64,000 bases of DNA, taken from positions 39,122,001-39,186,000 of the forward strand of contig OX597822.1 of the NCBI GenBank assembly GCA_951406725.2, read 5' to 3'. The translations under genes were made by a program, and so were the position numbers. Numbering within the stretch: the first letter of the stretch is position 1; each line of letters starts with the position of its first letter. Below the pieces are notes generated by a model. The model did not search any database. It had not been told where the DNA came from and worked only from the letters and a program-made list of their open reading frames with translations. The DNA is from Octopus vulgaris (Eukaryota). Below, one piece after another: positions 12,352-50,727 of the stretch.

Positions 12352-12544
12352 AATGGAGTTTAACGCAGGTATACATCAAATACTTTTACTTTCGACACAT
12401 GTTTCGAAGATTTCACTGATATTATTCAAAAGAATAAATGGTATAAAACAATGCAATCTTCTCTTCAGGAAAGTGATTTTTTGCTACCCTGGTAACTATT
12501 TATTTATTTTTTCCGTGTTAATTGTTAACAAGGCAAAAATACAC

Positions 12545-12546
<2 letters not shown>
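12348..12546 (-). mobile_element. Penelope-type short element carrying a hammerhead
   Basis: Lies between (TA)n and (CTAT)n. A related copy with an internal deletion is at 15497-15627. Confidence 0.65.
12388..12474 (-). ncRNA. Type I hammerhead ribozyme, intact core, sense to lectin pre-mRNA
   Basis: Minus strand: actttc-CTGAAGA-gaagatt...aatcttc-GAAA-CAtgTG-TC-gaaagt. 6-bp stem I, 7-bp stem II base, GUC site. Confidence 0.85.
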
Positions 12547-12640
<94 letters not shown>

Positions 12641-15136: not shown

Positions 15137-15466
15137 AAGGCGCATGGCTCAGTGGTTAGAGCGTCGAGCTTACGATCGTGAGGTTGTGAGCTCGAATCCC
15201 GGACCGGGCGGCGTGTTGTGTTCTTGAGCAAGGCACTTTATTTCACGTTGCTCCAGTTCACTCAGCTGTAGAAATGAGTTGCGATGTCACTGGTGCCAAG
15301 CTGTATCGACCTCTGTCTTTCCCTTGGATAACACTGGTGGCGTGGAGAGGGGAGGCTGGTATGCATGGGCGACTGCTGGTCTTCCATAAACAATCTTGCC
15401 CGGACTTGTGTCTAGGAGGGTAACTTTCTAGGTGCAATCCCATGGTCATTCATGACCGAAGGGGGT

Positions 15467-19513: not shown

Positions 19514-19702
19514 ATCGCAATCAAGGAACGGCCATAATAGGCCATTCACCCACTAGAAATAACAGCCAAAAGCTTTAACCGCAAAATAACATTAATTCCG
19601 TTAATTTTCTCCTGGTTTACGGAATTAATGTTATTTTGCGGTTAAAGCTTTTGGCTGTTATTTCTAGTGGGTGAATGGCCTATTATGGCCGTTCCTTGAT
19701 TG

Positions 19703-19706
<4 letters not shown>
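19514..19706. repeat. Perfect 88-bp inverted repeat with 17-bp spacer
   Basis: 19514-19601 is the exact reverse complement of 19619-19706 and abuts (TA)n. Confidence 0.95.
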
Positions 19707-19755
<49 letters not shown>

Positions 19756-21020
19756 TAGGTAAGCTGTATCGGCCGTTGCCTTTCCTTTGGATAACACTTG
19801 CTGGTCTTACATAAACAACCTTGGGATCTTTTCAGTTTGAAAGCCAGATTTTCCTAGTTAACTAAACAATTTGAAACTTCGTATACTGGTAGAATGTGTC
19901 AAAAGAAAACATAATTGTAAACCAAAATGAAAACGGAATTGTAATTTCTAAGTTTAACGTTGTTTAATAATTCGAATTTTAACCATTGGTATTCTTTCTT
20001 TCGACCTCATATTATTTACTGCCTCTCAAAATATTGTTACTGTGACGTAAACAGCTATTTTGTGACGTAGTTAACGTAAACATGTAAACAGACCTACAGA
20101 TTCGTTTGTAACGTAAACATCCGTTCATCGTAAATAGCTAAATTCGCTTGGCATCGTACACAGCTTTTTCAGTTCCCTAGAATTATATTTGAAAGAAAAT
20201 AAAACGAAAAAGATTCATACGCATAAATATCCATCCTTAGACATCAGAAAATGAGTGTTTAAATTATTTTCCATTGTTTGCATTGCTTACACACACACAC
20301 ACATACATACATACACACATACTAAAATTACATCGTTGGAGCAGTAATTTATTTATGTATTTTTTGTTATACAATTTATTTTAAAGCTGAATCCCTATCC
20401 TGCCATTAACCCCTTTCTTATAAAATAGTTGAAGAATCTGGGGTGTAGGTATTGGGCCAGTATTGGAACTTTTAACTTCTTGCTCCCTATCTTATGATCT
20501 CCGAAATTTAAGAATCTTGTGTTAACTGGGCTCTTATTATTTACTCTGACTCTGCCACCACCTCAATGCAAAGACTATCAATATCAGAATCATCTTCACA
20601 ACCACCACTACAACGATTACTACAACCTCCAATGCCACCACCACAACCATCTTCTGCAACCACAACCCCAAGATCAATACCAGCATCATATTCAAAATCA
20701 CCAATTTCACCACCACTACACTCTGCAATGTCTTCAACACTACCATCCATGAGACATCCTAACATAATCAATGCTACTACTACTATCATCATCATTATCA
20801 TTATCATTATCATCCACTGCCGCCACCACCTCTACAAAAACACCAACACTATAATTGCTGCCATCATACACATCCACTGTCACCACTACACCACCACCAC
20901 CACCACCACCACCACTGCCATGATAACCACATCTACCACCTCCAACACCATTGCCACCACTATCTATGAGACATCCTAAGTTAGATACTACTTTCACTTT
21001 CTAGTTGCTCTTTGAGTTTA

Positions 21021-21416
21021 TCTTTATATATAAAAGAGAGGTTGTGTGTCTGTCTCCTACGATTTAGATTCCTAACTACTCCCACATTTTGCGGTGCAGT
21101 TTAACCAAAACCGGGTATCTTATAGTCGTGATTCATATCGAGCCCTTCTGGGTATTAGCGCGCGTCTACGATGAGTCTACGATTTTAAAAAAAATTTACC
21201 ATAATTTTTTCCATTTTAATGCATTTTTTTGCTATTATATAAGGGAAGTAACTCTCTAAAAATGTCTACGATGAGTCAACGATTAAAAAAAAAATTTACC
21301 ATCATTTTTTTTCCATTTTTAATGCATTTTTTGCTATTTTTTGGCTATAACTCTCTAAAAATGCTTATATAGTTATTTCCCTTACAAACCCGAGCAACGC
21401 CGGGCGATACTGCTAG
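21021..21416 (+). mobile_element. Non-autonomous Helitron
   Basis: A|TC...CCCGAGCAACGCCGGG hairpin...CTAG|T. Confidence 0.85.
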
Positions 21417-22474
21417 TTATATCTAATCTATCTCTCTAAAAGATGCAAACCAAGCAGCATTAAATGGAGAATGGATGTGAGCAGAAAGAGAGTAAGTTCC
21501 ATTTCAGTTTACAACAATTATAGACTTATTCTCAAACCATAAATGAAGGGTGGAGAGGAGTGAAGGAGGAGTCATGTTTCCTCTGAGAGGTTACAAAAGT
21601 ATTGTTACACTGTTGTTAGAATAGCTGTGGAAAATGTAAGTTGAAATCAAATTTGATGCTAAATTCTTTTATAGTCATGTTCCCAATGAAATACACATAA
21701 TCAATTTGAACAGTCTTAGTAAAATAGCTACTTTCTTTAATTATTAATCAGGTGTTTGGATCAACAAAATTATGAAATAAAGGTGAGAAGGTCAGAAGAG
21801 TGTCTATCTGCTTGTAACTATGTAGACTATGCCTTGTTATGGTTTATGTTAGGGTTAGAGCTATGGTCTAGAATTGGCAACAGATAGCATACTAAATTGT
21901 AAATGGCCACGTTTACTGTATGCTAAACTGGCACTAGAGATTTAATGAAACAGTTTACCTATCAGAATTTAAGTCATGAAAGGGTTAGTTAGCATTGTCA
22001 ACACACTTCACATTTCTCTTTTTTTGTGGGCAATGAAATAAAACACTAGATAAGGAGTGGGTCAATATAGTTGACATTATTTCCTCCTATAAAACTTTTG
22101 GCTATGTACCTTTGTTAGAAATTCTTATTTGTATTAATATAAAGTGCGAGCAAGAGAACATCTGCAGGCTTTCCTAAACTGTTAATGTGAATGTAGATGA
22201 TGTCTTTTTTCAACTTGTGTAAATTAATGTCTGATGAGAATGTGATTCCATGTAGAAGCTGCCATTCTGGAGATAAATGACTGGATAAAATATTTAGTAA
22301 AAGGTTCTAGCTGTGAGACATGTTAAAGATGATGATGTGGGCTCAGTTTACTACCACACCCTCAGCAATATCGCCATTGATGCTGTTGGCAGAGACGATG
22401 CTCCTATCAGATTTCTTGTTCCTAGGATACATCCGGTTTAAACGCCTTCTTTTCAGACCAGACATTTTTACGAT

Positions 22475-22536
<62 letters not shown>

Positions 22537-22689
22537 CTAGCATTCCATCGGTTATGACGAAGAGGGTGCCAGTTGATCCGATCAACGGAACAGCCTGCTC
22601 GTGAAATTAACATACAAATGGCTGAGTACTCCACAGACCCGTGTACTCTTAACATAGTTCTTAGCGAAATTCAGTTCGACATAGAATAT

Positions 22690-23478
22690 TTTCTACTCGA
22701 GGTACAAAGTCCGAAATTTTGTGGGAGAGGGCCAGTCGATTAGATCGACCCCAGTACACAACTGGTACTTAAGTTATCGACCCCGAAAGGATGAAAGGCA
22801 AAATAGACCTTGGCGGAATTTGAACTGAGAACCCATAGACAGACAAAATACCGCTAAGCATTTCGCTCAGCGTGCTAACGTTTCTGATTTCTTTATTGCC
22901 CACATGGGACTAAACATAGAGGGGGACAAACAGGGACAGACAAAGGGATTAGGTCGATTACATCGACCCCAGTGCGTAACTGGTACTTATTTGATCGACC
23001 CCGAAAGGATGAAAGGCAAAGTCGACCTCGGCGGAAGATGAACTCAGAATGTAGCGGCAGACGAAATACCTATTTCTTTACTACCTACAAGGAGCTAAAC
23101 ACAGAGAGGACAAATAAGAATAAACAAACGGATTAAGTCGATTATATCGACCTCAGTGCGTAACTGGTACTTATTTAATCGACCCCCAAAAGGATGAAAG
23201 GCAAAGTCGACCTTGGCGGAATTTGAACTCAGAACATAACGGCAGACGAAATACCTATTTCTTTACTACCTACAAGGAGCTAAACACAGAGAGGACAGAC
23301 AAGGAGATTAAGTCGATTACATCGACCCCAGTGCGTAACTGGTACTTAATTTATCGACCCCGAAAGGATGAAAGGCAAAGTCGACCTCGGTGGAACTTGA
23401 ACTCAGAACATAACGGCAGACGAAATACCGCCAAACATTTCGCCTGGCATGCTAACGTTTCTGCCAGCTCGCTACCTT
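22690..23478 (-). mobile_element. Tandem concatemer of SINE family D (probable Meta/MESC domain)
   Basis: Four ~180-bp units containing GTCGACTTTGCCTTTCATCCTTTCGGGGTCGAT on the minus strand. Confidence 0.8.
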
Positions 23479-23584
23479 CATCATCAACTTCTATTCCTGC
23501 TTAGCGTTTTGTTTAAATTTTTTGTTGACTAAAATTTATTGAAAAAAAAAAAAGCCGCAATAATTATGCACCAACCTAATACGA

Positions 23585-24237
23585 ATAGCATTGGATATTT
23601 TGATTTTTTGTCAATCATCTGCCATCCATCAGTATGTAGTGAACGTGGAGGCGCAATGGCCCAGTGGTTAGGGCAGCGGACACGCGGTCGTAGGGTCGCG
23701 GTTTCGATTCCCAGACCGGGCGTTGTGAGTGTTTATTGAGCGAAAACACCTAAAAGCTCCACGAGGCTCCAGCAGGGGATGGTGGTGATCCCTGCTGTAC
23801 TCTTTCACCACAACTTTCTCTCACTCTTACTTCCTGTTTCAGTTGTACCTGTATTTCAAGGGGCCGGCCTTGTCACTCTTTGTGTCACGCTGAATATCCC
23901 CGAGAACTGCGTTACGGGTACGCGTGTCTGTGGAGTGCTCAGCCACTTACACGTTAATTTCACGAGCAGGCTGTTCCGTTGATTCGGATCAACCGGAACC
24001 CTCGTCGTCGTAACCGACGGAGTGCTTCCATGTTCTCAGTGGAGGCAGTTTCAGGACGTCCAGAAGCTGGATCATCTCCAAGACTCTCCCTTCTCCTCCT
24101 AAATTTAGCTGCCCATTTTTACATTGTTGATAAAACTAGAGCATCATCCCCTAATGTAGCAACCATGACAGCATGAGTGTTGTTTGAGGCTAAACTCTTT
24201 TTCTGCCGGTAATTGTCAACAGCACGACACCAAATTA
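23585..24237 (-). pseudogene. mariner transposase N-terminal relic, interrupted by a SINE
   Basis: RAV..Y.QKK.L....HAVMVATLGDDA...STM*KWAAKFRRRRESLGDDPASGRPETASTEN continues past the SINE as VHYILMDGR*LT. Confidence 0.8.
23646..24030 (+). mobile_element. tRNA-derived SINE, family C
   Basis: A box TGGCCCAGTGG, B-box-like GGTTTCGATTCC. Near-identical copy at 26633-27014. Confidence 0.85.
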
Positions 24238-24290
24238 GAAAATTACTATTTGTAAATCTCACAACGAGAGATATTCAGCAACAGTACTTA

Positions 24291-24697
24291 GGAATAAAAA
24301 TCATTTGCCAACATAACATGGCAGTCCTAGTTTAGGACGAATGTTGCTGTAATTTAGCCCCAGGAGACATCGTCTCCAGCTGGCTGTACGACACGATCTG
24401 TGTCCTTATATTTTCGAACAAGGGAATCTAGCACCACCCCCGCCACTCAGCTCAAAACAATATCTGTGTATTGCGATTTCCGGGTTATTTCCCTTCATTA
24501 GCACAGAATAATTGCTCGGCTAGAGGTGGCGCTGCCAAATTCGCGATACACAGATATTGTTTTGAGCTGAGTGGGGGGTGCTAGATTCCCTTGTCCGAAA
24601 ATATAAGGACACAGACGATGTCTCCTGGGGCTAAATTACAGCAACATTCATCCTAAACCAAGACTGCCATGTTATGTTGGCAAATAATCTTTACTCC
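24291..24697. mobile_element. Foldback MITE with long TIRs
   Basis: 24291-24478 vs 24538-24697 are inverted, with one ~25-bp indel. No clear TSD. Confidence 0.8.
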
Positions 24698-24789
24698 ACG
24701 ACATCAAATTTTGTCTATTTTCAAGAGACACCGCTACTAATAACTTTTGAAGTGTTCTTTGAACAGTCAGATGTCAGTTTACTCTTTAA

Positions 24790-25170
24790 TTTGTTTCAGT
24801 CATTTGACTGTGGCCATGCTGGAGCACCGCATTTAGTCGAGCAAATCGACCCCATGACTTATTCTTTGTCAGCCTAGTACTTATTCTATCGGTCTCTTTT
24901 GCCGAATCGCTAAGTTACGTGGACGTAAACACACCAGCATGTGAAATGATGTTGGGAGGACAAACATATACTCACACATACATATATATACATATATACA
25001 TATATACGACGGGCTTCTTTCAGTTTCCGTCTACTAAATCCACTCACAAGGCTTTGATCGGCCCGAGGCTATAGTAAAAGACACTTGCCCAAGGTGCCAC
25101 GCAGTAGGAATGAACCTGGAACCATGTGGTTGGTAAGCAATCTACTTACCACACAGCCACTCCTGCGCCT
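24790..25170 (-). mobile_element. SINE family A, near full length
   Basis: Colinear with 495-916. Confidence 0.85.
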
Positions 25171-25328
25171 ATGTTATTATTGTTAATTATTTTTTCAGTT
25201 ACCCGCTTCTAATGTCGAAGTTTGACTCCGACAGCTTCTCATTGACTCCTCTTTCAGGCGGCTCAATTTAAGTTCAAGAGATCTCTTTTCGATACTTTCA
25301 AGAATTTTCCTTCTATTTCTTTTTACTT

Positions 25329-25330
<2 letters not shown>

Positions 25331-25360
<30 letters not shown>

Positions 25361-25538
25361 TGTATGTATGTATGTGTGTGTGTATGTATGTGTGTGTATG
25401 TATGTATGTATGTATGTATGTATGTGTGTGTATGTGTGTGTATGCATGCTTGCATGTATGTATGTATGTATGTATGTATGTATGTGTGTGTGTGTGTATA
25501 TATGTATGTATGTATGTGTGTATGTATGTATGTATGTA

Positions 25539-25569
<31 letters not shown>

Positions 25570-25923
25570 ATGTATGCATGTATGTATGTATCTGTATGTA
25601 TGTATGTATGTATGTATGTATGTATGTATGTGTGTGTGTATGTATGTATGTGTGTATGTATGTATGTATGTATGTGTGTGTGTGTATGTATGTATGTGTG
25701 TATGTATGTATGTATGTGTGTGTATGTATGTATGTGTGTATGTATGTATGTATGTATGTATGTATATATGTATGTATGTATGTTTGTATGTATGTATGTA
25801 TGTTTGTATGTATGTATGTATGTATGTTTGTATGTATGTATGTATGTATGTATGTATGTATGTATGTATGTATGTATGTATATGTGTGTGTGTATGTATG
25901 TATGCATGTATGTATGTATGTAT
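25331..25923. repeat. (TATG/TG)n microsatellite
   Basis: Direct read. Confidence 0.97.
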
Positions 25924-26029
25924 GAGTTCTAGGTAAATTCTACCACGGAAAATTCCACCAGGTAAATTTCACCATAGGTAAATTCCATCACGGTATATTT
26001 AATCTGTCTGTCTCTCAAGTCTTAAGAAA

Positions 26030-26072
<43 letters not shown>

Positions 26073-26168
26073 TACCCACACCGCCATCACCACCCATAAC
26101 ATCAACGACCCGACATTAACATTGTCGCCGCCGCCGCCGCTACCAGCACTGCTACTACTACCACCACC

Positions 26169-26227
<59 letters not shown>

Positions 26228-26279
26228 CGCCAACACAACAGCCACCACCACCACCACCACCACCACCAATACTACAACA

Positions 26280-26346
<67 letters not shown>

Positions 26347-26354
26347 TTACCGTT

Positions 26355-26512
26355 GCTCGCGATACCAGAGGGCGCACACTCTCCTACCCTGATGTAATCT
26401 CCAGAGATACAGGCATCCAGCAACAGGACCTCCATAATGCTATGATGGACCGTGAAGTCTGGCGTAACATAGTAAATTCGATTGTCTCGACCACGGTCGA
26501 ACAATGATTATG
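26355..26512 (+). mobile_element. 3' end of an RTE-type LINE
   Basis: RGRTLSYPDVISRDTGIQQQDLHNAMMDREVWRNIV resembles the RTE C-terminus (GR...Y.D....D.G.....L...M.DR..WR..V). Confidence 0.6.
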
Positions 26513-26632
26513 ACTATTACTACTAACAACAGCAGCAGCAGCAGGAACACTAATCAGCAACCACAAGATCACTAATCGTTGCATAGAAACTAGATTTCAT
26601 TGCCTATTGATGCAAGCTGTCATTTCTGAGAG

Positions 26633-27014
26633 TGGAGGCGCAATGGCCCAGTGGTTAGGGCAGCGGACTCGCGGTCATAGGATCGCGGTTTCGATTCCCA
26701 GACCGGGCGTTGTGAGTGTTTATTGAGCGAAAACACCTAAAGCGCCACGAGGCTCCGGCAGGGGATGGTGGTGATCCCTGCTGTACTCTTTCACCACAAC
26801 TTTCTCTCACTCTTACATCCTGTTTCAGTTGTACCTGTATTTCAAAGGGCCGGCCATGTCACTCTCTGTGTCACGCTGAATATCCCCGAGAACTACGTTA
26901 AGGGTACACGTGTCTGTGGAGTGCTCAGCCACTTACTCGTTAATTTCACGAGCAGGCTGTTCCGTTGATCGGATCAACCGGAACCCTCATCGTCGTAACC
27001 GACGGAGTGCTTCC
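26633..27014 (+). mobile_element. SINE family C
   Basis: Colinear with 23646-24030. Confidence 0.85.
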
Positions 27015-28009
27015 AATCTTTACCAACGGATTTTCTTCTAAGAAGGACCCTTTTATTTTTCCGCTGATAGTAGGTGGGATTTGAACTCAGAATATAGGGA
27101 TCCGAAATAGATACTGCTAGATGCTACTAGATTCCACGAATCTTCTCTGTATTGTTATTTTGAGAATATGAAGATGAAATTAACTTAGGCGTGATTTGAA
27201 CTCACAAAGCAAAGAGGCGAAATAAATAACCCAAGTTAACGACTGTGTCAGTTGAACACACCCACACTCGGTCGTGCGCGCAGGGAGGTATATTACAGGA
27301 GACTTGGGATAAAATAATCCAGGCGCTTGCCTAGGGAAGAAGTGCTTCTACGGACAATGACTAAATGGGGAAAAGACCCCCAATAAGCTGGTAACCACGA
27401 CCACCACGACCACCACCACCACCATCATCACCACCCCCACCACCACGACGACCACCACCAACAACAAAAACAACACCACCACCACCACCACCACCACAAA
27501 CACGACGACCACCACAACCACGACCACCATAACCACTACCAGCACCACCGCCACCACTGCTGCCACTACCACCGCCTCCACCACCACCATACTATGCCTC
27601 TGCTCTCTCCTTTTGGCTACTAAATCCATTACCATATTTCACAAGTACCATCGCCATACAATATTGCCTTCAAAAGTTTGTGTTTGGATAATATCTTTTA
27701 AGTAAAAGTTGTGCAACAACTATAACATTCGGTTGTGCAAATTATTTGTACGGGAAACCTTCCCTGTGTGGAGTGTTTCCCGATTTTGTAGAATTTGCTT
27801 TCGGGCTTTCTTAGCCATTTCTGTTTTGGTGTCTTCAAGCCATGAAGTCGTTGTTCTAAAAGAACGCTGGTCTCCTTGACAACGCTTTACGACGTTGATT
27901 TCCTTACACTCCCTTTCCCACAGCTTCACGAAGGAGGGAAGAAGGGGGAGAAGCAACACAGGTGCAGGTGTGAGCATGGACGCCAACTCCGCCGCCTTCC
28001 CTTTATTTA

Positions 28010-28228
28010 AAAAAATATGCGTTAAAATGGAAAAAAATTATGGTAAATTAATTTTAAAATCGTAGACTCATTGTAGAGGCGCGCTAATACCCAGACGGGC
28101 TCGATATGAATCACGACTATAAGATACCCGAATTTGGTTAAACTGCACCGCAAAATGTGGGAGTAGTTAGGAATCTAAATCGTAGGAGACAGACACTCAC
28201 ACAACTTCACTTCTATATATATAGAAGA
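28010..28228 (-). mobile_element. Helitron 5' fragment (family of 21021-21416)
   Basis: Reverse complement of the first ~210 bp of the 21021 element. Confidence 0.8.
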
Positions 28229-28400
28229 TATTTCTATTATATGTAATTTTCTAGATGGTGTAATTTAATTGTTCATTTTGAATTGATAAAAGGTGTTTTT
28301 TTCTAATTTTATATATATATATATATATTATAATTTGTGAAATTTGATTTAGTATTTCTAAATTGAATTTTTCCCTGTAAGTTATGAATAATATTCCCTC

Positions 28401-28437
<37 letters not shown>

Positions 28438-28443
28438 TGTATA

Positions 28444-28480
<37 letters not shown>

Positions 28481-28486
28481 TGTATA

Positions 28487-28549
<63 letters not shown>

Positions 28550-28564
28550 TGTACATATATATGT

Positions 28565-28625
<61 letters not shown>

Positions 28626-28628
<3 letters not shown>

Positions 28629-29028
28629 TTATATATAAAAGTGAAGTTGTGTGTCTGTCTCCTACGATTTAGATTCCTAACTACTCCCTCATTTTGCGGT
28701 GCAGTGTAACCAAAAGCGGGTATCTTATAGTCGTGATTCATATCGAGCCCTTCTGGGTATTAGCGCACGTCTACGATGAGTTTACGATTAAAAAAAAAAA
28801 TTACCATCATTTTTTCCGCATTTTTAATGCATTTTCGCTCGGTTTATATAAGGGAAGTAACTCTCTAAAAATGTATTATTAAATCTCAGAATGTAAAAAA
28901 GCTACAGTAACAACCCCCCCCCCTTTGTGGTTAGCCACATTGAGATGGCTATTATACTTTACATTTCTAAAAATGCTTATATAGTTATTTCCCTTACAAA
29001 CCCGAGCAACGCAGGGCGACACTGCTAA
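28626..29028 (+). mobile_element. Non-autonomous Helitron (family of 21021-21416)
   Basis: A|TC...CCCGAGCAACGCAGGG...CTAA|T. Confidence 0.85.
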
Positions 29029-29732
29029 TATATATATATATATATACTCTTTTATTCTTTTATTTGTTACAGTCATTTGACTTTGGCCATGCTGGAGCAC
29101 TGCCTTTAGTCGAGCAAATCGACTCTAGGGATTATTCTTTGTAAGCCTAGTACTTATTCTATCAGTCTGTTTTTGCCACACACACACACATACATATACA
29201 CACACACACATACATATATACACATACATATATACACACACGTATACACACACACATCTTGTTGCTTCTTGGGAGGGTCATTATGCCAATAACGATATGG
29301 TTACACATCTGACCAACTTCGTAATCGATCGTTTGTTTAACATGCTGGTTAAACAATCAAAGTTTTATTTCTTCGTGAAAGTCCGTTCGTCGCTATTTTT
29401 CGCGACCTTTTCAATAGCTTGTCCTTTCTCTTCAACGTCTGCCCTGAATTTGGCCGCGAATTAATCTTATGTCTGCGTGCATCATGCCTTTCTATGTGTG
29501 TGTAGATGTGTGTTTGCTTAGAAGAATAAGGGTGAGAGGAAAGGAGATTATGTGCGTGCGTGCGAGTGTGTATGTGTGTGTGTGTGTGCGTGCGTATGTG
29601 TGTGGTTGTGTGTACACTCGTGTGACTACTTGCATGTGTATGTGTACGTGTGTGTTAGTGTGTGTAGCCATCCATGACTAGGTATGTGTATGTATAACTG
29701 TGTCTATATACGTACATAGATTTATATGCAAG

Positions 29733-29965
29733 AGGCGGCGAGCTGGCAGAAGCGTTAGCACGCCGGGCGAAATGCTTAGCAGTATTTCGTCTGCCGCTAC
29801 GTTCTGAGTTCAAATTCCGCCGAGGTCGACTTTGCCTTTCATCCTCTCGGGGTCGATAAATAAAGTACCAGTTTCGCACTGGGTCGATGTAATCGACTTA
29901 ATCCGTTTGTCTGTCCTTGTTTGTCCCCTCTATGTTTAGCCCCTTGTGGGTAGCAAAAGAAATAT
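29733..29965 (+). mobile_element. SINE family D monomer
   Basis: GGCGGCGAGCTGGCAGAAGCGTTAGC head, GAGTTCAAATTCC B-box-like motif, Meta-like block. Confidence 0.8.
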
Positions 29966-30222
29966 ATATCATGTATATATGTGAATAGAAGCAGGCGTGA
30001 CTGTGTTGTAAGCCGTTCCGGGTTCAGTCCAGCTGCGTGGCACTTTGAGCGGGTGTTTCTACTATAGCCCTGGGTCGACTAAACCCTTGTGAGTAGATTT
30101 GATTGACGGAATCTGAAAAAGCTCGTCATATATGTGTTTATCAATATTTAGCAGAAGCAACAGAGTGACTCGGGGGGCGAGAGTTTCGTGCATTGACACT
30201 TGTCAAACTACACACAGACACA

Positions 30223-30267
<45 letters not shown>

Positions 30268-30630
30268 GCATGAGTGGCTGTGTGGTAAGTAGCCTGCTTA
30301 CCAACCACATGGTTCTGGGTTCAGCCCCATTGCGTGACGCCTTGGTCTTCTACTAGAGCCTCAGGCCAACCAAAGCCTTGAGAGTGAATTTGTTAGACGG
30401 AAACTGTGTGTGTGTTTGTGTTTGTCCCCCCCGATGGTGGCATGTATATACATATTATTGTTCTTTCTTGCGAAATATATAGAATTACTTTAAAGAAGTG
30501 TTCGGATCGAAACAAGTAAAAGAATAAAAGAAAGAAAAGAAAGAATATATATATATATATGTACATTTTTACTTTTATATACATATTTATATTTATTGCA
30601 TATCTTTAACTTTTTTATATTTATATATAA

Positions 30631-31930
30631 CTAGCAGTTGCCCGGTTACATTCAATTGGAGAATTAGACTTTTCTGTTATATCTTCTGTGATGAACTGGA
30701 ATATCTATGTTTCGAATTTCATCAAAATTGCAGATGAGGGTTATTTCAATCTTTACACACCCTAAAAAATTGTAATTGTGCCACATGTATCCCATAATCC
30801 TGATTTTTATGCGCATATTCCAAAATTCCAGTCTTATTTAACTTGTTAAAAAGATTTTGTTTCTGAAAAATGAAGGTCATGGAGCTCTAAAATGTGAGAG
30901 TTAAGGCCCCTGTTGGGGGTGGGCATCTTAATGTCAACCAGAGAAGTTGAATTGTTGAAAATCTTTTTAACTTAGGTCTTATATCTATTGTTTGAATTTC
31001 TTTGAAATAGGAAATATATGTTCACTGGGTTTGTAAAAGAGAGCAAAGCTACAGGAAACCAAAAGACGAATGATCACAATAAGCAGTCAGTTGCCCTACC
31101 CTAGTCGTTACCACTCCTAATGTAGGATTCCTCACAATTCAGGTGACAGGCACAGCCGTAAGATGCGATACGAATCTATAGCAATTGGAAGGGCGTAACC
31201 CAACTGAAATCAACATTAACAACTGTTTGACGTGAGAGCTAAGGAGAAATGAAAGTGTCACCTCTGTAGTTTGCAAATGACCACTATACTGATACGTAAC
31301 TGGACAGAAAAAATTTAAAATCTATAAATGTCTTCGAATAACCAGTCACTCATCTGGGAAGGCCTTGAAATCAATGTTACCATCTGGGGACTATGTGTGA
31401 ACGAGTGATAATAAAAAGACTGAAAGGAGGTCTGCAATCAAATAAATTTTACTCTACACTTTGCAACTGAATCAGTGGAGGCAAAGATGCCTCTCATTTA
31501 CTTGACAGTTTATGCAGCACATTGCAGAAATCACAATATAAGTGTATGTCAAAGCAAACTGTTACACTGTTGTACCATTGAATTACAAATAATGCTCATC
31601 TTTTATGCTCGGGTAACCCTACAGCTTCCAAGAGCACAACTGTATTCATTTTTGCTTAGATAAAATGACAAAATTGTAGATGTTAAGTCCCCATGGAGGG
31701 GTCTTTCTTACTTTGTAAGATGAAATTTTATAGATATTACTTCATTTGTGTCTAATGTCTATGGTTAAAATTTCATCAACAGCAAAAATATATGAATTGT
31801 CATGGGCGTTATGGTCCTTATGCATAGAATATAATTTCCAAATTTCATAAAGATCCATTCAGTACTTTTGACCAAGTTTTGGATCATAAAAGAAATTACT
31901 AAAATTTGGGATTTAAGGCTCCCATTAGGG

Positions 31931-31935
<5 letters not shown>
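30631..31935 (-). mobile_element. Probable old Helitron
   Basis: CTAG end at 30631 with partial CCGGGCAAC hairpin. Extent is approximate. Confidence 0.35.
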
Positions 31936-32002
<67 letters not shown>

Positions 32003-32299
32003 AAAAGATACACACACACATGCACACATACAAAGATAAATTGATAGATACAACTGAGTGGGCAAACAAAAATATGAGACACAGCCTAGTGCTTTTTTAT
32101 GTTGATAAGCCTAGTACTTACTCTATTAGTTTGTTCTTGTGAAACCAGTAAGTTATGTGGATGTAAATAAGTGAACAGCAGTTGTGAAGCAGTGATGAGG
32201 GCGAAACACAGAGACAAAGACACACACATACACTTACATATATACATTTATATATATACGATTTATTTGTTACAGTTCCTGTCTACGAAATCCATATAT

Positions 32300-34570
32300 A
32301 TTGTTGTTGGCATCCTTTTTGTCTCAGGAGACAATGGAGTTGCGCATAAAATAATGTAGTCCGGCTTTTACATTTCATGTCCTAATACATCTCTTGCTGT
32401 GGCTGTGTAGTCCTATCTGGGACAAACACTCCCTCTGGCAGGTGCCGTAAATGTAGCGAAGACTTTGCCTGACTGGTCTTAATGTCATAGTTTCTTGTTG
32501 ATGTCTTTTCTTGTCTTTCCATTTCTCCTTTCTCACTATGTCACTCCTTTATGTTCCCTCTTTTACGATACATCGCCAATCTCCACAGTTGCTGGCAACT
32601 GCTTCCCAGTTGGTAATATTGATGTTGCAGGCATTCATGTCCCTTTTGCAAACATCCTTGTATCGTAAGAACGGTCTTCCCACAGACCTAGTACCCCTAG
32701 CAAGCTCTCCGTTGAGTATGTCCTTGGGGATTCTGCCATCTTCCATACAGCTAACATGTCCAAGCGATCTCATACGTCTTTGTGTGAAGAGTGCAAACAT
32801 GCTTGGTATTCCTGCTTGCTTGGGGATATCTTTGTTAGGGACATGATTCTGCCATTTGATGCGATGGATTTTCCGGAGACAGCGCAAGTGAAAGATATTT
32901 AGGCGACGTATGGCGTCGTATGGCGTGTGTATGGCGTCAAAGTCATACAGTAGAGTGCTAAGTACACATGCCTGGTAAATCTTCATTTTTGTGGTCTTGG
33001 TCAGCTTATTGTTGTCCCATGCGCGTTTGGTGAGTTGGGCCATCACAGCAGCTGCCTTGCCAATACGTATATTGAGCTCAGCATCAAGGGATAGGTTGTA
33101 GATGACGGTAGAGCCAAGATAGGTAAACTTCTCCACATCCTGTAGTCTGTGGTCTCCAATTTGTATGTTTGGGATGTCCGATGTAGCCTGACCCATGATG
33201 TTGGTCTTCTTGAGGCTGATAACTAAGCCAAAGTTGCCAAATGCTTGCTCAAAACAGTTGCTGAGCCTTCGTAGGGCTTCTTCTGTGTGTGATACCAGAG
33301 CGGCATCATCAGCAAATAGCATCTCCTTGATCAGGACGCTTCTGAGATTTTGGTCTTGGCACGCAGACGCGAAAGATTAAACAGTTTCCCATCACTTCTA
33401 CTGCGCAGAAACACTCCATCATCTGATGTCTCAAAGGCATGTGACAGCAGCAGCGAGAAGAAGATGCCAAATAATTTAGGAGCAAGGACACAACCTTGCT
33501 CTACCCCATTTTTTATTTGGAAGGCGGCTGATGTTGAACCATTGTGCTGTATGGTGCCTTGCATATTAGCATGGAATGATTTGATGATCTTCAGCAGCTT
33601 TGGTGGACATCCGATTTTTTGGAGCAGGATGAAGAGGCCTTTTCTACTTACCAAGTCAAAGCCCTTTGTCAGATCAATGAAGGCCATATATAATGGCATG
33701 TTCTGCTCTCTGGACTTCTGAAGTTGGCGTATGGAGAATATCATGTCAATAGTTGATCTGCTTCTAAAGCCACACTGCGATTCTGGATAAATTCGAGAAG
33801 CAATTAGTTGCAGCCTGGACAGGATAATGCGAGCAGAGGCCTTTCCAACTGTGCTTAGAAGAGATATTCCACGGTAATTGTTGCAATCATCACGGTCACT
33901 TTTATTTTTGTAAAGCGTAATGATGTTAGCATCCCGCATATTCTGAGGGACTACCCTCTTACCAGCACTGACACAGAAGCTCATGAATGTGCCGAAGCAG
34001 GATAGTGTTTTTTCCGGTTTTGATGATCTCTAAGGGGATGCCGTCTTTTGCCGGAGCCTTGTTACTTGCTAGGGAGTCAATAGATTTGGTGAGCTCTGCT
34101 ATAGATGGCAGACTGTCAAATTCACACATGGCTGGCAAGATCTTGACACCCTCGATTGCAGCCTCAGCTACCTCTCGTGAGTAGAGATCCTGGTAGTACT
34201 CCATCCATGTATCCATTTGCTTGCTTTGGTCCTTGATGAGATCTCCAGTAGTTGATTTCAGAGGGGCTGAGGTGGTTGCGGATGGACCGAGGGCCTTCTT
34301 CAAACCGGCATACATCCCACGGGTGTCGCCACTGTCAGCAGCTGACTGGATACTCTGACAGATTTCCTGTCAATACCCATTTGCACAGCGTCTGGCAGTG
34401 AGTTGGGTTTTATTTCTTGCCTTTCTGAGTTCTTCGAGTGACTTTGTAGAAGAAACACTCTTGTATTGCATCAGAGCTGCACGCTTTGCTTCGATAACTG
34501 TTTCCAGCTCTGAGAGCCCAGCACTGAACAAAATCTGGGTTTTACCTTTCTCTCATTCCGAAAGTATCTA
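32300..34570 (-). mobile_element. 5'-truncated RTE (BovB-like) LINE, frameshifted
   Basis: Motifs NYRGISLLS, ESQCGFR, FIDLTKGFDLVSR, GVEQGCVLAP, DMLFADD, FTYLGS. 3' end CCATTGTCTCCTGAGACAAAAAGGATGCC plus (CAA)n. Confidence 0.92.
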
Positions 34571-35791
34571 TTGATGTGGTATACGAAGCTTCCCTGATAT
34601 AATTCCACCTACTTTCAGCAGAGGAGGTTGGGCAGCTACTGAGGGCAACCTTGATAGAAACAGCAAAACATTGTCGCAGTGTAGGGTCCGAGGTTCTGGC
34701 AGGAGCCGAGCCGAGTGTAGGGTCGGAGGTTCTTCAGGAGCCGAGCCGAGCCGAGCCGAGCCGGACTCCTTATACCCTAAGTAAGTTATATGTAAAATGT
34801 GAATGAAATTGGTTGTGTAGTTCTCAAGTTTCATGGAAACACACATTCTCAGATACATAAAAGAATGAGAGTGGGTGATGTTTTGTTTGTTGGACCAATG
34901 TATTAAGGTAGTATTGTTTTAAAACGAAAGAGGCAATGTGTTTGTTTCAAAAATAAAAAAAAGTCAAACGTCCGCCAATGGGAAGACAGTTCATATTCGA
35001 TTAGAGCACTCTGGGTATAATCATAAAAGTGAAAAATGGAATTTTTAGGCATATCAAACAGTGAAAAACCAAAAACAAATATATTAAAAAAAATATAATA
35101 TAGAAAATATAAAATTGAAAAATTTAAATTAAATTGAAAATAAAAATTATTAAATTATATTTATAATTTGTTTAAAAATATATATAACTATGAAAAAGTT
35201 TAATATACATAAATACAGATATATACACTTTGTATATATATATTATATATACATATTTATATATAGAACACACACACACACATACATTAAATATACATAT
35301 CTATATATAGAACACACGCACACACACACATACATTATATATACATATTTATATATAGAACACACACACACACACATACATTATATATACATATTTATAT
35401 ATAGAACACACATACATATAAATGAACGCAAGAATATCTGATTCATAATATTTGTTCTCATGCTCGTGTGTTGTTGGTGACAGACAGATACGTGAAAGAA
35501 CGCCGATGTAATGGGAAGGTAAGAAACAGAGTGAGTGAAAAAGAGAGGAAATAGCGAGAGTGACAGATACTTTAAATAACGGTAGTGGACTTATCAAAGT
35601 TATTCTTGAAGGGGAGTGAGAGGGTACTGGAGGAAATAGCGTGAGTGAGGAAGATGGCCCCTAGCAACCACACCTTTTAAGATAGGGATTTCTAAGGTAG
35701 CCCACGAGCTCCGTCACCTATTTCTACATGTCCCTGTAAATTTTGGAGCGAATCGGACGGGACGTAGTGGCATTGAAAGCGATCCAAGCGG

Positions 35792-35873
<82 letters not shown>

Positions 35874-36130
35874 CTGAAGTTGTCTGGATATATGTATGTA
35901 TGTGTGTGTGTGTGTGTGTGTGTATACGTATGTATGTGTAGAGACCTATTTTGGCCCCACCTGAGTTTTGAAACTGAATGGGTAAATTTCCCCCTAACTA
36001 TAGAGCCTTATTGTTCTGTTGAGGAACAATGTTGTTTTATTCAACCGATGGCCTTCCCAACATTTGATTGATGTATTTTCCTCTTGACTCATAACCCTTC
36101 TAGTTTAAATAAATAATATAAATAATATAA

Positions 36131-36245
36131 GGGATCTTTACCCTTTCAACGGCAGATCGAGAAATATATTTTTTGTAACTAAACACTTTCAACCTTCGGA
36201 CCCTAACCCTAACCCTAATGTGTCATATAAAACATATTTTACTTT
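36131..36245 (+). mobile_element. Diverged GGATCTT-type terminal repeat with (CCCTAA)3 inside
   Basis: GGATCTTT...AACTAAACACTTTCAACCTTCG...ATGTGTCA resembles the 19824 terminus. Confidence 0.5.
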
Positions 36246-36257
36246 TAATGTTACTCT

Positions 36258-36580
36258 TGACCGCGGCCATGCTGGAGCATCGCCTTTAATCGAGCAACTC
36301 GACCCCGGGACTTATTCTTTTTGTAAGCCCAGTACTTATTCTATCGGTCTCTTTTGCCGAACCGCTAAGTAACGGGGACATAAATACACCAGCATCGGTT
36401 GTCAAGCAATGCTAGAGGGACAAACACAGACACACAAACACACATACATACATATATATATATGACGGGCTTCTTTCAGTTTCCGTCTACCAAATCCACT
36501 CACAAGGCTTTGGTTGGCCCGAGGTTATAGTAGAAGACACTTGCCCAAGGTGCCAGACAGTGGGACTGAACCCGGAATCA
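36258..36580 (-). mobile_element. SINE family A
   Basis: Colinear with 495-916. Confidence 0.85.
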
Positions 36581-37057
36581 GCTACTCCAATATTTTTTAA
36601 ACATCTGGCCTGTAAAACTTAATATTCCTCTAAATATTTTATAAGTCATCATACTATTTTTATCTTAGAAAAACAATGACCGAAGGAGTGAGAAGATTAG
36701 ATTATTCATGAAGCGTCTTCATAAAAACAAAAACACAGAACTCCTTTGGCATCTTAAATAAATACAATATCAATTCCAATAAAAGTAAAAAGACCGGTTT
36801 TCCTTGACCAACTTTACTGACGTCAGCATTTGAATGGATAGGTATAGGGGTGTTTACAACTCTGTTTTATTACGATTAACTCATTCTATTGGGCCCTGAA
36901 AGATAAGACAAAAACCAGCCGAGCAGGATTTGAAATGATTATTGTAAAATAATGCAAATGTCGGTTTACCTATACATGTGTGCCCCTACCCGACCGACTT
37001 TGTTGCCTCACAACTTCCAGAAAATGTAAATTTTTTTAATGAAATTTTCAAAAAATA

Positions 37058-37569
37058 CCGTTAATCCTCGAGTATAGTCTGCCCTTGAGTATAATACGCA
37101 GGGGATTTTTAGGGGGCTGTACCTCTGGAAAACCTAAACCTTGTGTATAATACGCACCACTTCTCTAACTTCAGTCAAGGAGGTGTATATAACGTCCTTG
37201 GTTTCTAAAAATGTATACGGTAACGTCCTTTATTATTATTGTATATATAACATAATGTAAACGTGTAGCTTTTTTGTGCATTTTGTTTGCAGAAAATAAA
37301 GAAATAACAGTAATAACGTTTAATAAATGTTGCTTATTGCAAGTTATGGATGATTCTTTTATGACTTCATTGCTTTCAGGCTTAGCTTAAGGTATTTTCG
37401 AGCCCGACATCACAAAATGCCTCTGAATAAACATTGCCTGACAGCAAATAGAGACTTGGACATTGCTTAGAAAATAATTTCCATTTTTAACCTCATATAT
37501 AGTACGCACTAGGGATTTTGACCTTTAAATTTTGGGAAAATAATGCGGATTATACTTGAGGATTTACGG
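37058..37569. mobile_element. Tc1/mariner-superfamily MITE (CCGT termini, Tc2-like)
   Basis: TA|CCGTTAATCCTCGAGTATAGTCTGC ... GCGGATTATACTTGAGGATTTACGG|TA. Confidence 0.85.
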
Positions 37570-38050
37570 TATGTTTTAGATTGTGTATATTCCGCTTACA
37601 TAGGAATTTGATATTTAAAAAGATTCTGTGGTTAGGAAGAGGGGTTTCGGGAAATTCACATGAGTTGACTTTGTTTCCTCATAACTTGGGTATTTTTTAA
37701 TGAAATTTGCTACAAATACTTTTCAGAATGTATATATTCAGATCATATTGTAATTTGATGTGAAAAGGAAAATAGTGGCACACATCACAATTTCTTTCGA
37801 AATCTCAAGTTTCATTTTGTACATATATATGATATCCATTAGTACATAAAAGCCCACCATTAGTGCATAAAAGCCCACCATTTTTGTATTTTCTTTTGTC
37901 ATATTAAAACCCCAGCGTTTTCGATAGCCGCTCATGAAAAAGTGAAAGTCTTTCTTCGGCAATTTCTTGATTTCAGCAACTATTTTCGGAAAAAAATTTT
38001 TGCCCCCTACCCCTCCACTTCCAATTTCTTCATTTCTCGCTTGTTTCCGT

Positions 38051-38175
38051 AACTCTAATCCTAAATCCCAACCCTAACCCTAAAACCCCAAACCTAACCC
38101 TAACTCTAAAACCCTAACCATAAAACCTAGCTCTAAAACCCTAACCCTAAAACCCTAACCTTAAAACCCAAACCC
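38051..38175. repeat. Degenerate telomere-like (CCCTAA)n tract
   Basis: Units such as CCCTAACCCTAAAACCCTAA end exactly at an internal GGATCTT terminus. Confidence 0.8.
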
Positions 38176-38860
38176 GGATCTTTTCTTTTTGAAAGCCAGA
38201 TTTTTCAGATTTTTCTAGTTAACTAAATAATTTGAAACTTCGTATACTGGTAGAATGTGTCAAAAGAAAATAATAATTTCAACTAGTTTTTTTGACAAAA
38301 ATATATTTTATAAGTTTAAACGTAGTTTAAATCTGCGAATTTTAACCAATCATATTGTCTGTTTTCATTTGAAATTATTAGCTGCATAGTGTTAATGTGA
38401 CGTAGATAGCTATTTTGTGAGTGGGTAAGCAGTAAGCAAACAGCTGTGGTAGATGTGGTTATCATGGCAGTGGTGGTAGTGGTGACAGTGGATGTGTATG
38501 ATGGCAGCAATTATAGTGTTGGTGTTTTTGTAGAGGTGGTGGTGGTGGTGGTGGCAGCAGTGGATGATGATGATAATGATGATGATAGTAGTAGTAGCAT
38601 TGATTATGTTAGGATGTCTCATGGATGGTAGTGTTGGTGTGTGTGTGTGTGTGTGTGTGTGGGTGTATGTATGGATCAAAACAGTTTGATTCAAATTCTG
38701 TGGTACTTATATATTCATACATACATATACATGTAGATGTATATAACATATATATATTGTATGTAAACATCTTTTATATATATAATGTATGCATCTATAA
38801 TACACACACATTATAAATATATACACATATATGCATATGCATTAGAATATGTGTGTATAG

Positions 38861-38911
<51 letters not shown>

Positions 38912-39280
38912 TATGTTTGTATACATGTGTGTGTAGCTATTTAGGATCTACACAAATTTTATATAAACTCCACGAAGTTTATGATAAGCGGAGATGTTTA
39001 CATTTTAGTTAGCTATTTACATGTTTACGTTAACTACGTCACAAAATAGCTGTTTACGTCACAGTAACAATATTTTGAGAGGCAGTAAATAATATGAGGC
39101 CGAAAGAAAGAATATCATTGGTTAAAATTTGAATTTTTAAACAACGTTAAACTTAGAAATTACAATTCCGTTTTCAGTTTGGTTTACAATTATGTTTTCT
39201 TTTGACACATTCTACCAGTATACGAAGTTTCAAATTGTTTAGTTAACTAGGAAAATCTGGCTTTCAAAAAGAAAAGATCC
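38176..39280. mobile_element. ~1.1-kb GGATCTT...AAGATCC non-autonomous element (right module of the composite)
   Basis: Inner TIR at 38176 (first ~95 bp near-identical to the outer TIR). Internal block 38446-38634 is the reverse complement of ~20739-20939. It has no TSD of its own. Confidence 0.75.
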
Positions 39281-39333
39281 CAACCTTGCCCGGACTTGCC
39301 CGCAGGTGTGTCATATTTTCCGTCTGTTGTCTT

Positions 39334-43915: not shown

Positions 43916-43960
43916 ACTGACTGACTGACTGCTCTCTTTACAACCCGTGGACAAGATTTA

Positions 43961-45358
43961 GTGCTGCATACACCTCAACATATAAAGCAAGAAATAGAAA
44001 ATAAGACAATTGTATATAAAATTATTAGAAAAAACAAAAATCTAAATGAACAGATTACAAAAACTGATGTGGAAAAATGTTTAAAAAACATAATGAAAGA
44101 AAAAGAGTATATAAACTGGGGTCCCCAGTTTAACACAGTAGTGGTCCGCTTCCCTAACCAGGAAGTGGCAAAAGCTCACTCTACTGAGTCTCTGGGAAAT
44201 GATGAAATCATCATGGTCCCATACTACAAAAACCAGAGAGTGAGTCGAATCACAATTAAAAATGTACCCCCCGAGCTTCCTAACAAATGGATAACAGGGG
44301 CAATCTGTTACCATTTAAAAAATATTAATATTTTGGAGACCGCCGTGTACCCTGGCGACATTTGGGGTGGGAAAACAATAGTGGTGACCATCCAGATTGA
44401 GGGGGCCTCTATCGAGAGCCTACCGGATAAGATCCACTTGGAGAATGGGCAATGCCTATATGTTGTGGCAGAAGGCAAAAAGCCTAGATGCTACAAATGT
44501 GGCAGCCCCGAACATTTGATTGCCAAGTGCGATCTGGTACAGAAAAAACAAGAAAGAACAAATCAGAAAACAAATAAAATCCCTTTGTTGCCAACACCAA
44601 CACACTCAATTATGGAACAATGCCAAGAAAAACAACAAACCAGCAAACAAACCCCAACATCACCAAGAAAAGAAACAGTACCAACACAATCACCGTTGAC
44701 GTCACAACCAATTAAACATGTTGAATTTAAAAAAAATGGACCCACACCCACACCCAGGACGACAATTAAAAAGACAGAAAACACTGACGAGAAGACAAAT
44801 GCTACCCCTAACACCACAACAACGCAAACACCGCACAAAACATCAACAATTTATACAAGCATACATAGTAATGCAAATGCTTTGCCTCTACCCCATACTG
44901 ATACGTCGGACGACGAAAGTTCGACGGAATGGCAAATAGCCACAGGGGGTAAAAGAAAAAGATCCAAAAAATCCACCAAACAAGGAAGTAAAGCAGGGAG
45001 ATATCTAACTCAGGACAACATCCCCCTAGACAATCAAAAAAGTAATGAACCCGTAAAACCACACACACAACTAACTGCAATAGACACAGACAATAAAGAA
45101 TTAATGGACTACATCAAATCTAACATGGTCATCTGTGAAGATGACTTTAAGACAAACAATCATCCGCACACCACACCACCGAAACACATCAGAATTTTAC
45201 ACATAACACAAGCACAACACCACATACTGAAAACAATATTTCCGAATGCGGTAGGCGGGTATCAACGATACCTGTCGAAAAAACTATACAAACACCTCAT
45301 CAAAAACAATACAAAAGAAGAAGAAGAAAAAAATGAAACTTTTAAAATGGGTAAGTGA
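43961..45358 (+). CDS. Tx1 ORF1 (gag-like nucleic-acid-binding protein), probably 5'-truncated
   Basis: 465 codons without a stop, CYKCGSPEHLIAKC knuckle, TIKNVPPEL motif. The frame stays open upstream toward the microsatellite and starts at GTG, not ATG. Confidence 0.85.
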   Translation: MLHTPQHIKQEIENKTIVYKIIRKNKNLNEQITKTDVEKCLKNIMKEKEYINWGPQFNTVVVRFPNQEVAKAHSTESLGNDEIIMVPYYKNQRVSRITIKNVPPELPNKWITGAICYHLKNINILETAVYPGDIWGGKTIVVTIQIEGASIESLPDKIHLENGQCLYVVAEGKKPRCYKCGSPEHLIAKCDLVQKKQERTNQKTNKIPLLPTPTHSIMEQCQEKQQTSKQTPTSPRKETVPTQSPLTSQPIKHVEFKKNGPTPTPRTTIKKTENTDEKTNATPNTTTTQTPHKTSTIYTSIHSNANALPLPHTDTSDDESSTEWQIATGGKRKRSKKSTKQGSKAGRYLTQDNIPLDNQKSNEPVKPHTQLTAIDTDNKELMDYIKSNMVICEDDFKTNNHPHTTPPKHIRILHITQAQHHILKTIFPNAVGGYQRYLSKKLYKHLIKNNTKEEEEKNETFKMGK

Positions 45359-45415
45359 CCTCACTTCTTGCCTCTTGTCTCTTCTAATATAGTGTGTAAA
45401 ACACATTTTTCGTAA

Positions 45416-48400: not shown

Positions 48401-48844
48401 TCGAAAACCATCACCGGACCGACCTGCCCGAGATGCGGTCAGAGCGACGAAACCGTTCTGCACGCACTCGTGCAGTGTCCAGATATTTCAGAGTTGTGGT
48501 CCTTCGTCGAACAGCTGTTGTCACGTGTAGGTCAGGCTCGCCTATCGGCCGAGTCTATCGTGAATATTGTTCCACCACCTTCCTTTAAACGGGAAGGGAA
48601 AACGGTTTTCGTTACGCTGATGGCTATGGCGAAAGAATGTGTGTGGTGGACGCGTTTGAAAGGACTGCAAACAAACACCTTCCTCTCTGGTCAGTCTCTC
48701 GTCAACTTTTTCAAGTACCACTTGAAAAGGAGGATGAGAATAGAGAGGAAGGCTTTGTCGAACGAATGTTTTAATAAAAAGTGGGTAAAAGTGGCAAAAA
48801 TGGTCAGTATGAAAGACGACACTATTTTAAGCATAAATCTGTAA
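45416..48844 (+). pseudogene. Tx1 ORF2 (APE endonuclease-RT), frameshifted near 45975, 46445 and 48010-48050
   Basis: Motifs NARGL, ISET, VGDWNA, TDH, PGYWKLN, FRPITLLN, LDQSKAFDRVDH, VRQGCPLS, AYADD, CPRCGQSDETVLHALVQC. Confidence 0.93.
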
Positions 48845-50716: not shown

Positions 50717-50727
50717 TATATATATAT

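Follow-up and report, generated by a model that had tools for sequence, protein, structure and literature searches.

The window analysed here is a 64,000-nucleotide stretch of the Octopus vulgaris genome (G000:C9:39122001-39186000; the genome measures 2.8 Gb in 227 contigs), and it holds a 19,457-bp transposable element. The element is one member of a family of giant, composite-ended and non-autonomous Merlin elements that has been amplified recently. An earlier description made from the letters of the window (the sequence-only reading) had proposed a composite macrotransposon with inverted 265-bp termini differing at about eight positions, an 8-mer immediately outside both, and a short interspersed nuclear element (SINE) as the target, and alignment confirmed each of these features. 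The terminal inverted repeats (TIRs), 19824-20088 on the left and 39016-39280 on the right, have exactly 8 mismatches over their 265 positions, and the 8-mer CAACCTTG is present as an exact target duplication at 19816-19823 and 39281-39288. The left flank is identical at 23 of 25 positions to an intact SINE copy at 15374-15398, and the right flank carries the match on to 15408 (14 of 14 positions, overlap with the duplication included). As the two flanks read across one 8-mer restore the intact SINE 15374-15408, the target was a SINE that the insertion split; the label SINE is taken over from the sequence-only reading, not from a repeat library, and is putative. A 31-bp segment that recurs inverted beyond the other end had also been offered as a sign that the flanks were once neighbours. 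The segment is real (29 of 31 positions identical), but because it is a dispersed repeat that also matches within about 20 family copies, it is weak evidence for once-adjacent flanks.

A dispersed family of giant copies

A search of the genome with the TIR returned 1249 candidates, and the best 40 that were scored are nearly all 98-99% identical. Patterns spanning the exact junction between TIR and interior occur at 57 left and 50 right ends genome-wide, and reversed-pattern controls gave 0 matches. An inward-facing right junction lies within 100 kb of 28 of the 57 left junctions, compared to a single left junction with a partner in any other arrangement, which excludes chance pairing of ends. 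The set examined comprises 30 paired copies, 29 that were fetched and the window's own; the family counts given here are lower bounds, and the sample leans to young copies with exact junctions.

These 30 copies measure 5,133-65,572 bp with a median of 17.5 kb and total 605 kb, including the window copy. Exact duplications of 8 bp flank 20 of them (one, in a TA repeat, is uninformative) and an exact 9-bp duplication flanks one more, while two copies have duplications with one mismatch, one with two and one with three; the ends of the other five are damaged or unresolved. The largest copy, at 65,572 bp, is itself bounded by an exact duplication, and two further pairs judged from their end loci alone also have exact duplications (L002/L180 and L004/L166). 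The copies span 12 contigs, end at the same terminal TIR base, and have unrelated flanks and distinct exact duplications, and the distinct exact duplications support movement as one unit, as the sequence-only reading had it. A one-off event at this locus was rejected on the dozens of exact junctions and the 30 paired copies: the family has been amplified, and this locus carries one of its late copies; it does not represent the founding event.

Several observations concern the distribution of copies. At G000:C10:76218051-76250411, two complete copies lie in the same orientation 920 bp apart with different duplications, which suggests local hopping. At G000:C6:99078861-99091930 (L143, L144; copy C6e), one left end is accompanied by two right ends with the same 8-bp flank in a region that holds an assembly gap, and this is either a tandem duplication or an assembly error. 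Exact left junctions are absent from C1, C2 and C5, three of the largest contigs, and frequent on the smaller C6, C8, C24, C27 and C30; this uneven spread may be real or may be an effect of exact matching. An empty allele was not found: comparison of window positions 19758-20287 with three contig sets matched the SINE and TIR families and nothing locus-specific, and one read set placed 0 reads, with 177 loose ends unseen.

Two arms, two TIR lineages and a common cargo

The right end had been described as a self-contained 1.1-kb element (38176-39280) without a duplication of its own, and the left end as an inverted partial copy of it. The first statement holds. The inner TIR starting at 38176 is 75% identical to the outer TIRs and has no duplication of its own, and the 30 inner-TIR loci fetched from the genome include 13 with the giant's flank, five free elements of 1.07-1.4 kb with exact 8-bp duplications (L158, L164, L165, L182, L185) and two more with one mismatch. 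The right arm is thus a miniature inverted-repeat transposable element (MITE) that is mobile by itself. The second statement needs revision, since the left arm has only the TIR and about 200 bp in common with the right element. A 320-bp piece private to the left arm is found in a longer free subfamily of 1.26-1.54 kb (5 of the 30 inner-TIR loci), and a further longer free element of 1,593 bp has a 9-bp duplication (L029). Six loci (L188-L193) carry the left arm on into 21602 and beyond, and all lack the Helitron-like insert at 21021-21416. Window positions 21610-22470 were considered as unique host DNA and rejected, as five non-family loci checked (six places) have the same left arm. After 22349 the family departs from the sequence common to its relatives, as seen in the divergence from locus L198.

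Table 1. Features of the element and its target site, in window positions.
Feature	Position	Strand	Basis
Target SINE, left part, ending in the left duplication copy (19816-19823)	19758-19823	+	Matches intact copies 15298-15398 and 3727-3762
Left arm: derivative of a longer Merlin-clan element, truncated at its 3' end and lacking a transposase	19824-22349	+	Private pieces in common with free 1.26-1.6-kb elements; six loci with the same arm
Left outer TIR, type A, 265 bp, GG terminus	19824-20088	+	8 mismatches to right TIR; 79% identical to TIR at G000:C4:95374810
Helitron-like insert in left arm (label putative, from hallmarks), TC...CTAG between A and T	21021-21416	+	Absent from L188-L193
Segment X, part of the body of the parental Merlin element	21829-22349	+	98% identical to G000:C4:95377291-95377811
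Cargo: SINEs, microsatellites, Helitron-like and long interspersed nuclear element (LINE) relics, non-coding DNA; collinear with other copies	22350-38175		Coverage by other copies
Broken LINE relic, passenger	32243-34702	-	RVT_1 on homologous open reading frame of copy C24a; frameshift common to 9/9 copies
Filler of 62 bp at internal deletion junction	34703-34764		Copy C8a has about 21 kb here
Degenerate telomere-like repeats	38050-38175	+	Same flank in 13/30 inner-TIR loci
Right arm: a complete MITE of 1.1 kb with a type-B inner TIR (38176-38445) and a type-A outer TIR (39016-39280)	38176-39280	-	Free copies with exact 8-bp duplications
Right duplication copy (39281-39288) and resumed SINE	39281-39298	+	Flank alignment

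The ends of the giant copies also come from different lineages. When 82 TIRs were placed in a tree, the short free MITEs (7 of 7) fell together with 18 of 24 right TIRs and with 0 of 30 left TIRs; support for the right-TIR/MITE group is 95/89, from a bootstrap that had not settled. The window's inner TIR falls among the inner ends of the short MITEs, 1.9% apart. Six right TIRs are left-like in the tree, which we read as conversion or replacement. The eight differences between the window's two TIRs therefore largely reflect two donor lineages and give no date for the insertion. Of the 30 giant copies, 6 still have the inner TIR. Taken as a unit, the element is bounded by one outer duplication and its inner end has none; the right module is mobile alone, and the left module, which has no inner end, has related free elements. 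The free 1.1-kb MITE and the ends from different lineages support a composite origin, so the proposal that two inverted elements moved the DNA between them stands for the ends of the family, with the correction that this locus is a late copy lacking about 21 kb of the centre that is present in copy C8a.

The telomere-like repeats at 38050-38175 are likely the original insertion site of the right MITE. The copy on C15 is nested in a small MITE from the same clan, at the telomere-like repeat of that MITE (L031:243-548, L033:214-365), as the right arm likely once was. Copies on C3, C18 and C2 (L099:1-345, L110:1-345, L125) share a related element inserted in the right TIR, with true ends beyond the fetched DNA, and as they share this insertion, the lineage moved after gaining a new right end.

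Inside, the copies derive by deletion and insertion from one body of transposon relics; they remain collinear and are 1-3% apart, and the mean difference between copies over ten backbone blocks is 0.8-2.8%. At least one of the 29 other copies covers 91% of the window element, the uncovered parts being 25181-26463 and 27397-27799, and the expectation that the interior was unique is thereby overturned. One passenger, the LINE relic at 32243-34702, is presumably RTE-like (the clade names RTE, CR1 and Tx1 used here are not library results). Its frame is broken at the same place in all nine copies checked and it had therefore decayed before the family spread; the claim that the relics are older than the divergence of the TIRs keeps its first half, the age of the relics, and loses its second, the TIR differences as a date. 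The 40 best genome matches of this relic, self aside, are 96-99% identical, and 27 of these 40 fall within a listed family end, compared to about 0.001 per match by chance.

Pfam profiles were scanned against 298 of 382 representatives of open reading frame (ORF) clusters from the family, at a minimum of 70 aa, the remaining 84 being mostly the shortest single-copy ones. The only domains above the cut-off belong to reverse transcriptase/LINE, endonuclease, Helitron, mariner and Tc1-type proteins; no host domain appeared above the cut-off in these 298 ORFs, with short exons outside the scan. Copies C24b and C4 carry a Helitron as a passenger, with long frames for Rep and helicase of 477-769 aa (L041:695-4599, L062:5666-9369). 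The search of the interior for a donor locus, which the sequence-only reading had suggested, ended in family copies and their relatives only, and no parent copy of the cargo without TIRs was found. Because the donor locus was not found, the origin of the cargo as host DNA caught between the arms is only inferred. In the 65.6-kb copy, 40 kb are common to no other sampled copy; this copy may be a second capture, a long master or a case of growth in place.

Evidence linking the family to Merlin transposases

Both ends of the element begin with GG, the duplications measure 8 or 9 bp and the TIR is 265 bp long, and PMC8101967 defines Merlin by GG ends, 8-9-bp duplications and TIRs of 24-462 bp. More direct evidence of this affinity, which the sequence-only reading had named, comes from two loci. 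At C4:95374810, a TIR that is 79% identical to the window TIR over 271 bp points inward and lies about 220-290 bp before a Merlin reading frame. The frame is frameshifted and 27-48% identical to other Merlin ORFs of the genome; its DDE core is known from the profile match only (PF12762 at C4:95375753-95376136, 58 bits, E 1.8e-12, one stop), and its N-terminal pieces have no Pfam match of their own. A copy of segment X follows on the same strand at C4:95377291-95377811, 1.15 kb downstream of the PF12762 match, with no TIR between transposase and segment. The second locus, C18:64458882, matches positions 28-957 of a TIR-plus-transposase query at 77% and abuts another PF12762 match with two stops. 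The same query also found transposase pieces on C14, C23, C16 and C3, and a further segment X copy follows one of the C14 pieces at a distance of about 2.5 kb. Read as coding, on the related loci, segment X and its continuation gave no Pfam match and no homologue among 28 candidates, and one leucine-rich-repeat match was rejected as spurious.

No transposase of the family was seen inside the copies, in agreement with the sequence-only reading: searches of the 30 copies by tblastn with 20 and a further 2 Merlin peptides yielded no match at E 0.01, and PF12762 was absent among the ORF representatives scanned. There was no intact cognate Merlin copy among the best 40 candidates scored, and 0 of the first 20 of 150 PF12762 loci are bounded by the family TIR. 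Related TIR pieces beside two Merlin loci (L050, L061) were rejected as element ends and are neighbours; a weak match to the family TIR at a third (L051) is unexplained. The transposase-linked TIR differs by 20% from that of the family, and the genes linked to it carry stops or frameshifts. We file the family as non-autonomous Merlin, and mobilisation by a Merlin transposase is predicted.

A different Merlin family occupies G000:C16:25033344-25042382 (L186, L045, L187). It spans about 9 kb with a 3.3-kb LINE insert; its 353-bp TIRs begin with GGC, its 8-bp duplication is exact, and its transposase frame of 308 aa is open and identical in L045 and L046, making it a candidate active Merlin. As a relative of the TIR studied here it was rejected, with an alignment score of 27 compared to a shuffled mean of 25.

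Origin of the family, rival explanations and known systems

We consider it probable that this family of at least 30 giant elements (5-66 kb) goes back to a Merlin transposase that seized two inverted Merlin-clan elements by their outer ends, and that the family has been moved in trans since then. The truncated derivative of a longer Merlin element that forms the left arm and the 1.1-kb MITE that forms the right arm would have lain inverted some 30-40 kb apart, a rough founder size taken from the 28 kb of copy C8a that are shared with at least two copies and about 8 kb kept by the window's lineage. A transposase acting in trans would have paired the outer type-A TIRs, about 3% apart, over the 21%-diverged inner TIR, and the arms and the intervening repeat-rich genomic DNA would have moved as one unit. 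Repeated cut-and-paste, with donor-site repair or replication, may then have raised the copy number in a recent burst (1-3% divergence); gap repair could have led to internal deletions, deprived 24 of 30 copies of an inner TIR that was redundant and caused conversion between TIRs, and new LINEs and Helitrons would have enlarged other copies.

A number of observations weigh against this account. Nine of the 30 copies lack an exact 8- or 9-bp duplication (five of these have damaged or unresolved ends), one exact case sits in a TA repeat, and within 100 kb of 29 of the 57 left junctions there is no exact right one. The inner end of the left arm is absent in every copy, and the search for the donor junction gave a single match with two mismatches, both within the TIR part. 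The transposase-linked TIR on C4 is 20% from the family TIR, and both loci that join a TIR to a transposase (C4, C18) contain stops. In addition, related elements without the right MITE may also reach about 18-19 kb: inward-facing pairs of related TIRs stand at C4:95374811-95393723, where the pair holds the broken Merlin transposase, and at C5:19822610-19840964. They are possible sister giants, so that a long body could predate the MITE.

These pairs bear most on an end swap, in which a long Merlin derivative grew by nested insertions and a MITE near its right end supplied a new right TIR, with no one-step capture of host DNA. We regard this as unlikely, although it would account for TIR pairs 18-19 kb apart both where a transposase is present (C4) and where the same left arm is present (C5), for the 9-kb span of another Merlin family with 353-bp TIRs in this genome, for the identity of every recognised cargo piece as transposon debris, and for the three copies that share a further related element in the right TIR. 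It fits less well with the family leaving the sequence shared by C5 and C1 after 22349, as the next 2.3 kb of C5 match no family copy, or with the 1.0 kb after the C4 transposase, which is absent from the family, dispersed repeats aside; in both cases short parts were read. Other superfamilies make duplications of 7-8 bp, namely hAT, P and KDZ, and a different transposase making 8-bp duplications (hAT, MuDR or similar) could have moved the family, the Merlin link then being a nested neighbour. In its favour, the family's cognate enzyme has not been shown, two other Merlin families here start GGC and not GGATC, the TIR pieces at L050 and L061 proved to be neighbours and not ends, and a weak hAT-like DUF4371 match (E 0.02, below the cut-off; L197:1506-1679) lies 1.5 kb beyond an old (83%) segment X copy on C1. 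We nevertheless hold this to be quite improbable, as TIR and transposase are contiguous and homologous at two loci (C4, C18) and a related TIR occurs within 1.5 kb at 0 of 30 Mutator-like element (MULE) transposase loci (30 of 66 PF10551 matches); the genome search covered MULE, with hAT, P and KDZ outside it. Two independent insertions, a segmental duplication or a misassembly would suit the doubled right end of copy C6e, with its single flank and nearby assembly gap, and neither spanning long reads nor an empty allele has been seen. Such explanations are scarcely credible for a family whose copies on 12 contigs end at the same TIR base among unrelated flanks and distinct exact duplications, and for a target SINE that is split at the duplication.

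Founding by the pairing of two outer ends invites comparison with several known systems. Tn10-type bacterial composites likewise have inverted flanking modules of which the outer ends are used, with one outer duplication; in them the transposase is the product of a flanking module, and the cargo includes a selectable gene. The Tn10-like label given to this element accordingly fits its architecture and goes no further: neither module encodes a transposase, no cargo gene was found and the left module has no inner end. The Ising element of Drosophila, which reportedly carries genes, is an animal composite in which two TIR elements move the chromosomal DNA between them. It has foldback elements on both sides and moved hundreds of kb (as cited in PMC6431247), but it was followed cytologically in fly stocks, is not Merlin, and is not described as a dispersed genomic family in the accessible text of that review. 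Maize Ac macrotransposons of 10-28 kb excise and reinsert, make 8-bp duplications and can gain copies, according to the text consulted of PMC9910405; two nearby ends move the DNA between them there as well, but Ac is a hAT element known in this form from single laboratory alleles of a plant, unlike a natural animal Merlin family of dozens with a history of deletions and insertions. The text available of PMC10175614 names macrotransposons only in its reference list.

Pack-MULEs and animal Pack-TIRs are also non-autonomous TIR elements that carry other DNA and are mobilised in trans (PMC8277862, PMC6431247). In a survey of 100 animal genomes, the captured pieces had a median of 224 bp and only 4 cases among 370 Pack-TIRs were multicopy, and the part of PMC8277862 consulted does not mention Merlin. 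Such captures sit inside one element and have a known parent locus, in contrast to the tens of kb found here between two elements, for which no parent locus or gene was found. Compared to Merlin and IS1016 (IS1595 family), the likeness lies in the GG termini, the 8-9-bp duplications, the TIR length and the homologous TIR beside a DDE_Tnp_IS1595 transposase in this genome, and the difference in a size of 5-66 kb, the lack of a transposase and ends that go back to two elements. The main text of PMC8101967 does not use the words "composite", "captured", "MITE" and "non-autonomous" at all (0 occurrences). Open full-text searches found no composite or giant Merlin family, with subscription papers, Repbase and supplements largely outside them; the species repeat library may hold the ends.

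According to a review of giant eukaryotic transposons (PMC6431247), transposition becomes less efficient once the cargo exceeds about 6 kb, natural cut-and-paste cargo seems to be limited beyond that size, and elements may be held to a lean size by natural barriers. A gene-less unit with a median of 17.5 kb has here spread to at least 30 sites, with both arms traceable to free elements, which suggests that cut-and-paste transposons can spread much larger loads than usually assumed. The family shows a composite turning into a family and then erasing its own origin through loss of the inner end. Because of the family, passenger repeats are counted too often and look too young, which bears on how repeats are annotated and dated, and the family singles out a Merlin transposase as a candidate for tests with large cargo. 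Two things temper its interest: the cargo lacks host genes, and there are precedents in maize and Drosophila. More speculatively, and with rather more doubt than belief on our part, the Merlin clan could serve in nature as a vehicle for large cargo and give rise to dispersed segmental duplications, having assembled units of 18-66 kb from pairs of ends time and again (in this family, in the C4 and C5 relatives and in the end-swapped lineage on C2, C3 and C18), with the 65.6-kb copy as a second capture of host DNA in one jump.

The surroundings of the element in the window contain many microsatellites, SINE-like repeats and LINE relics. Palindromic (self-inverted) elements of about 190 bp and about 400 bp lie just left of the insertion (19516-19704) and inside the element (24291-24697), respectively. 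Relics of reverse transcriptase from at least three LINE types are present outside the element at 12353-13950, 49656-50744 and 61343-62885. Also outside, at 43925-48841, is a near full-length LINE, presumably Tx1/L1-like, with a first frame of 477 aa and a frameshifted second frame; a close relative of it is inserted in copy C24b.

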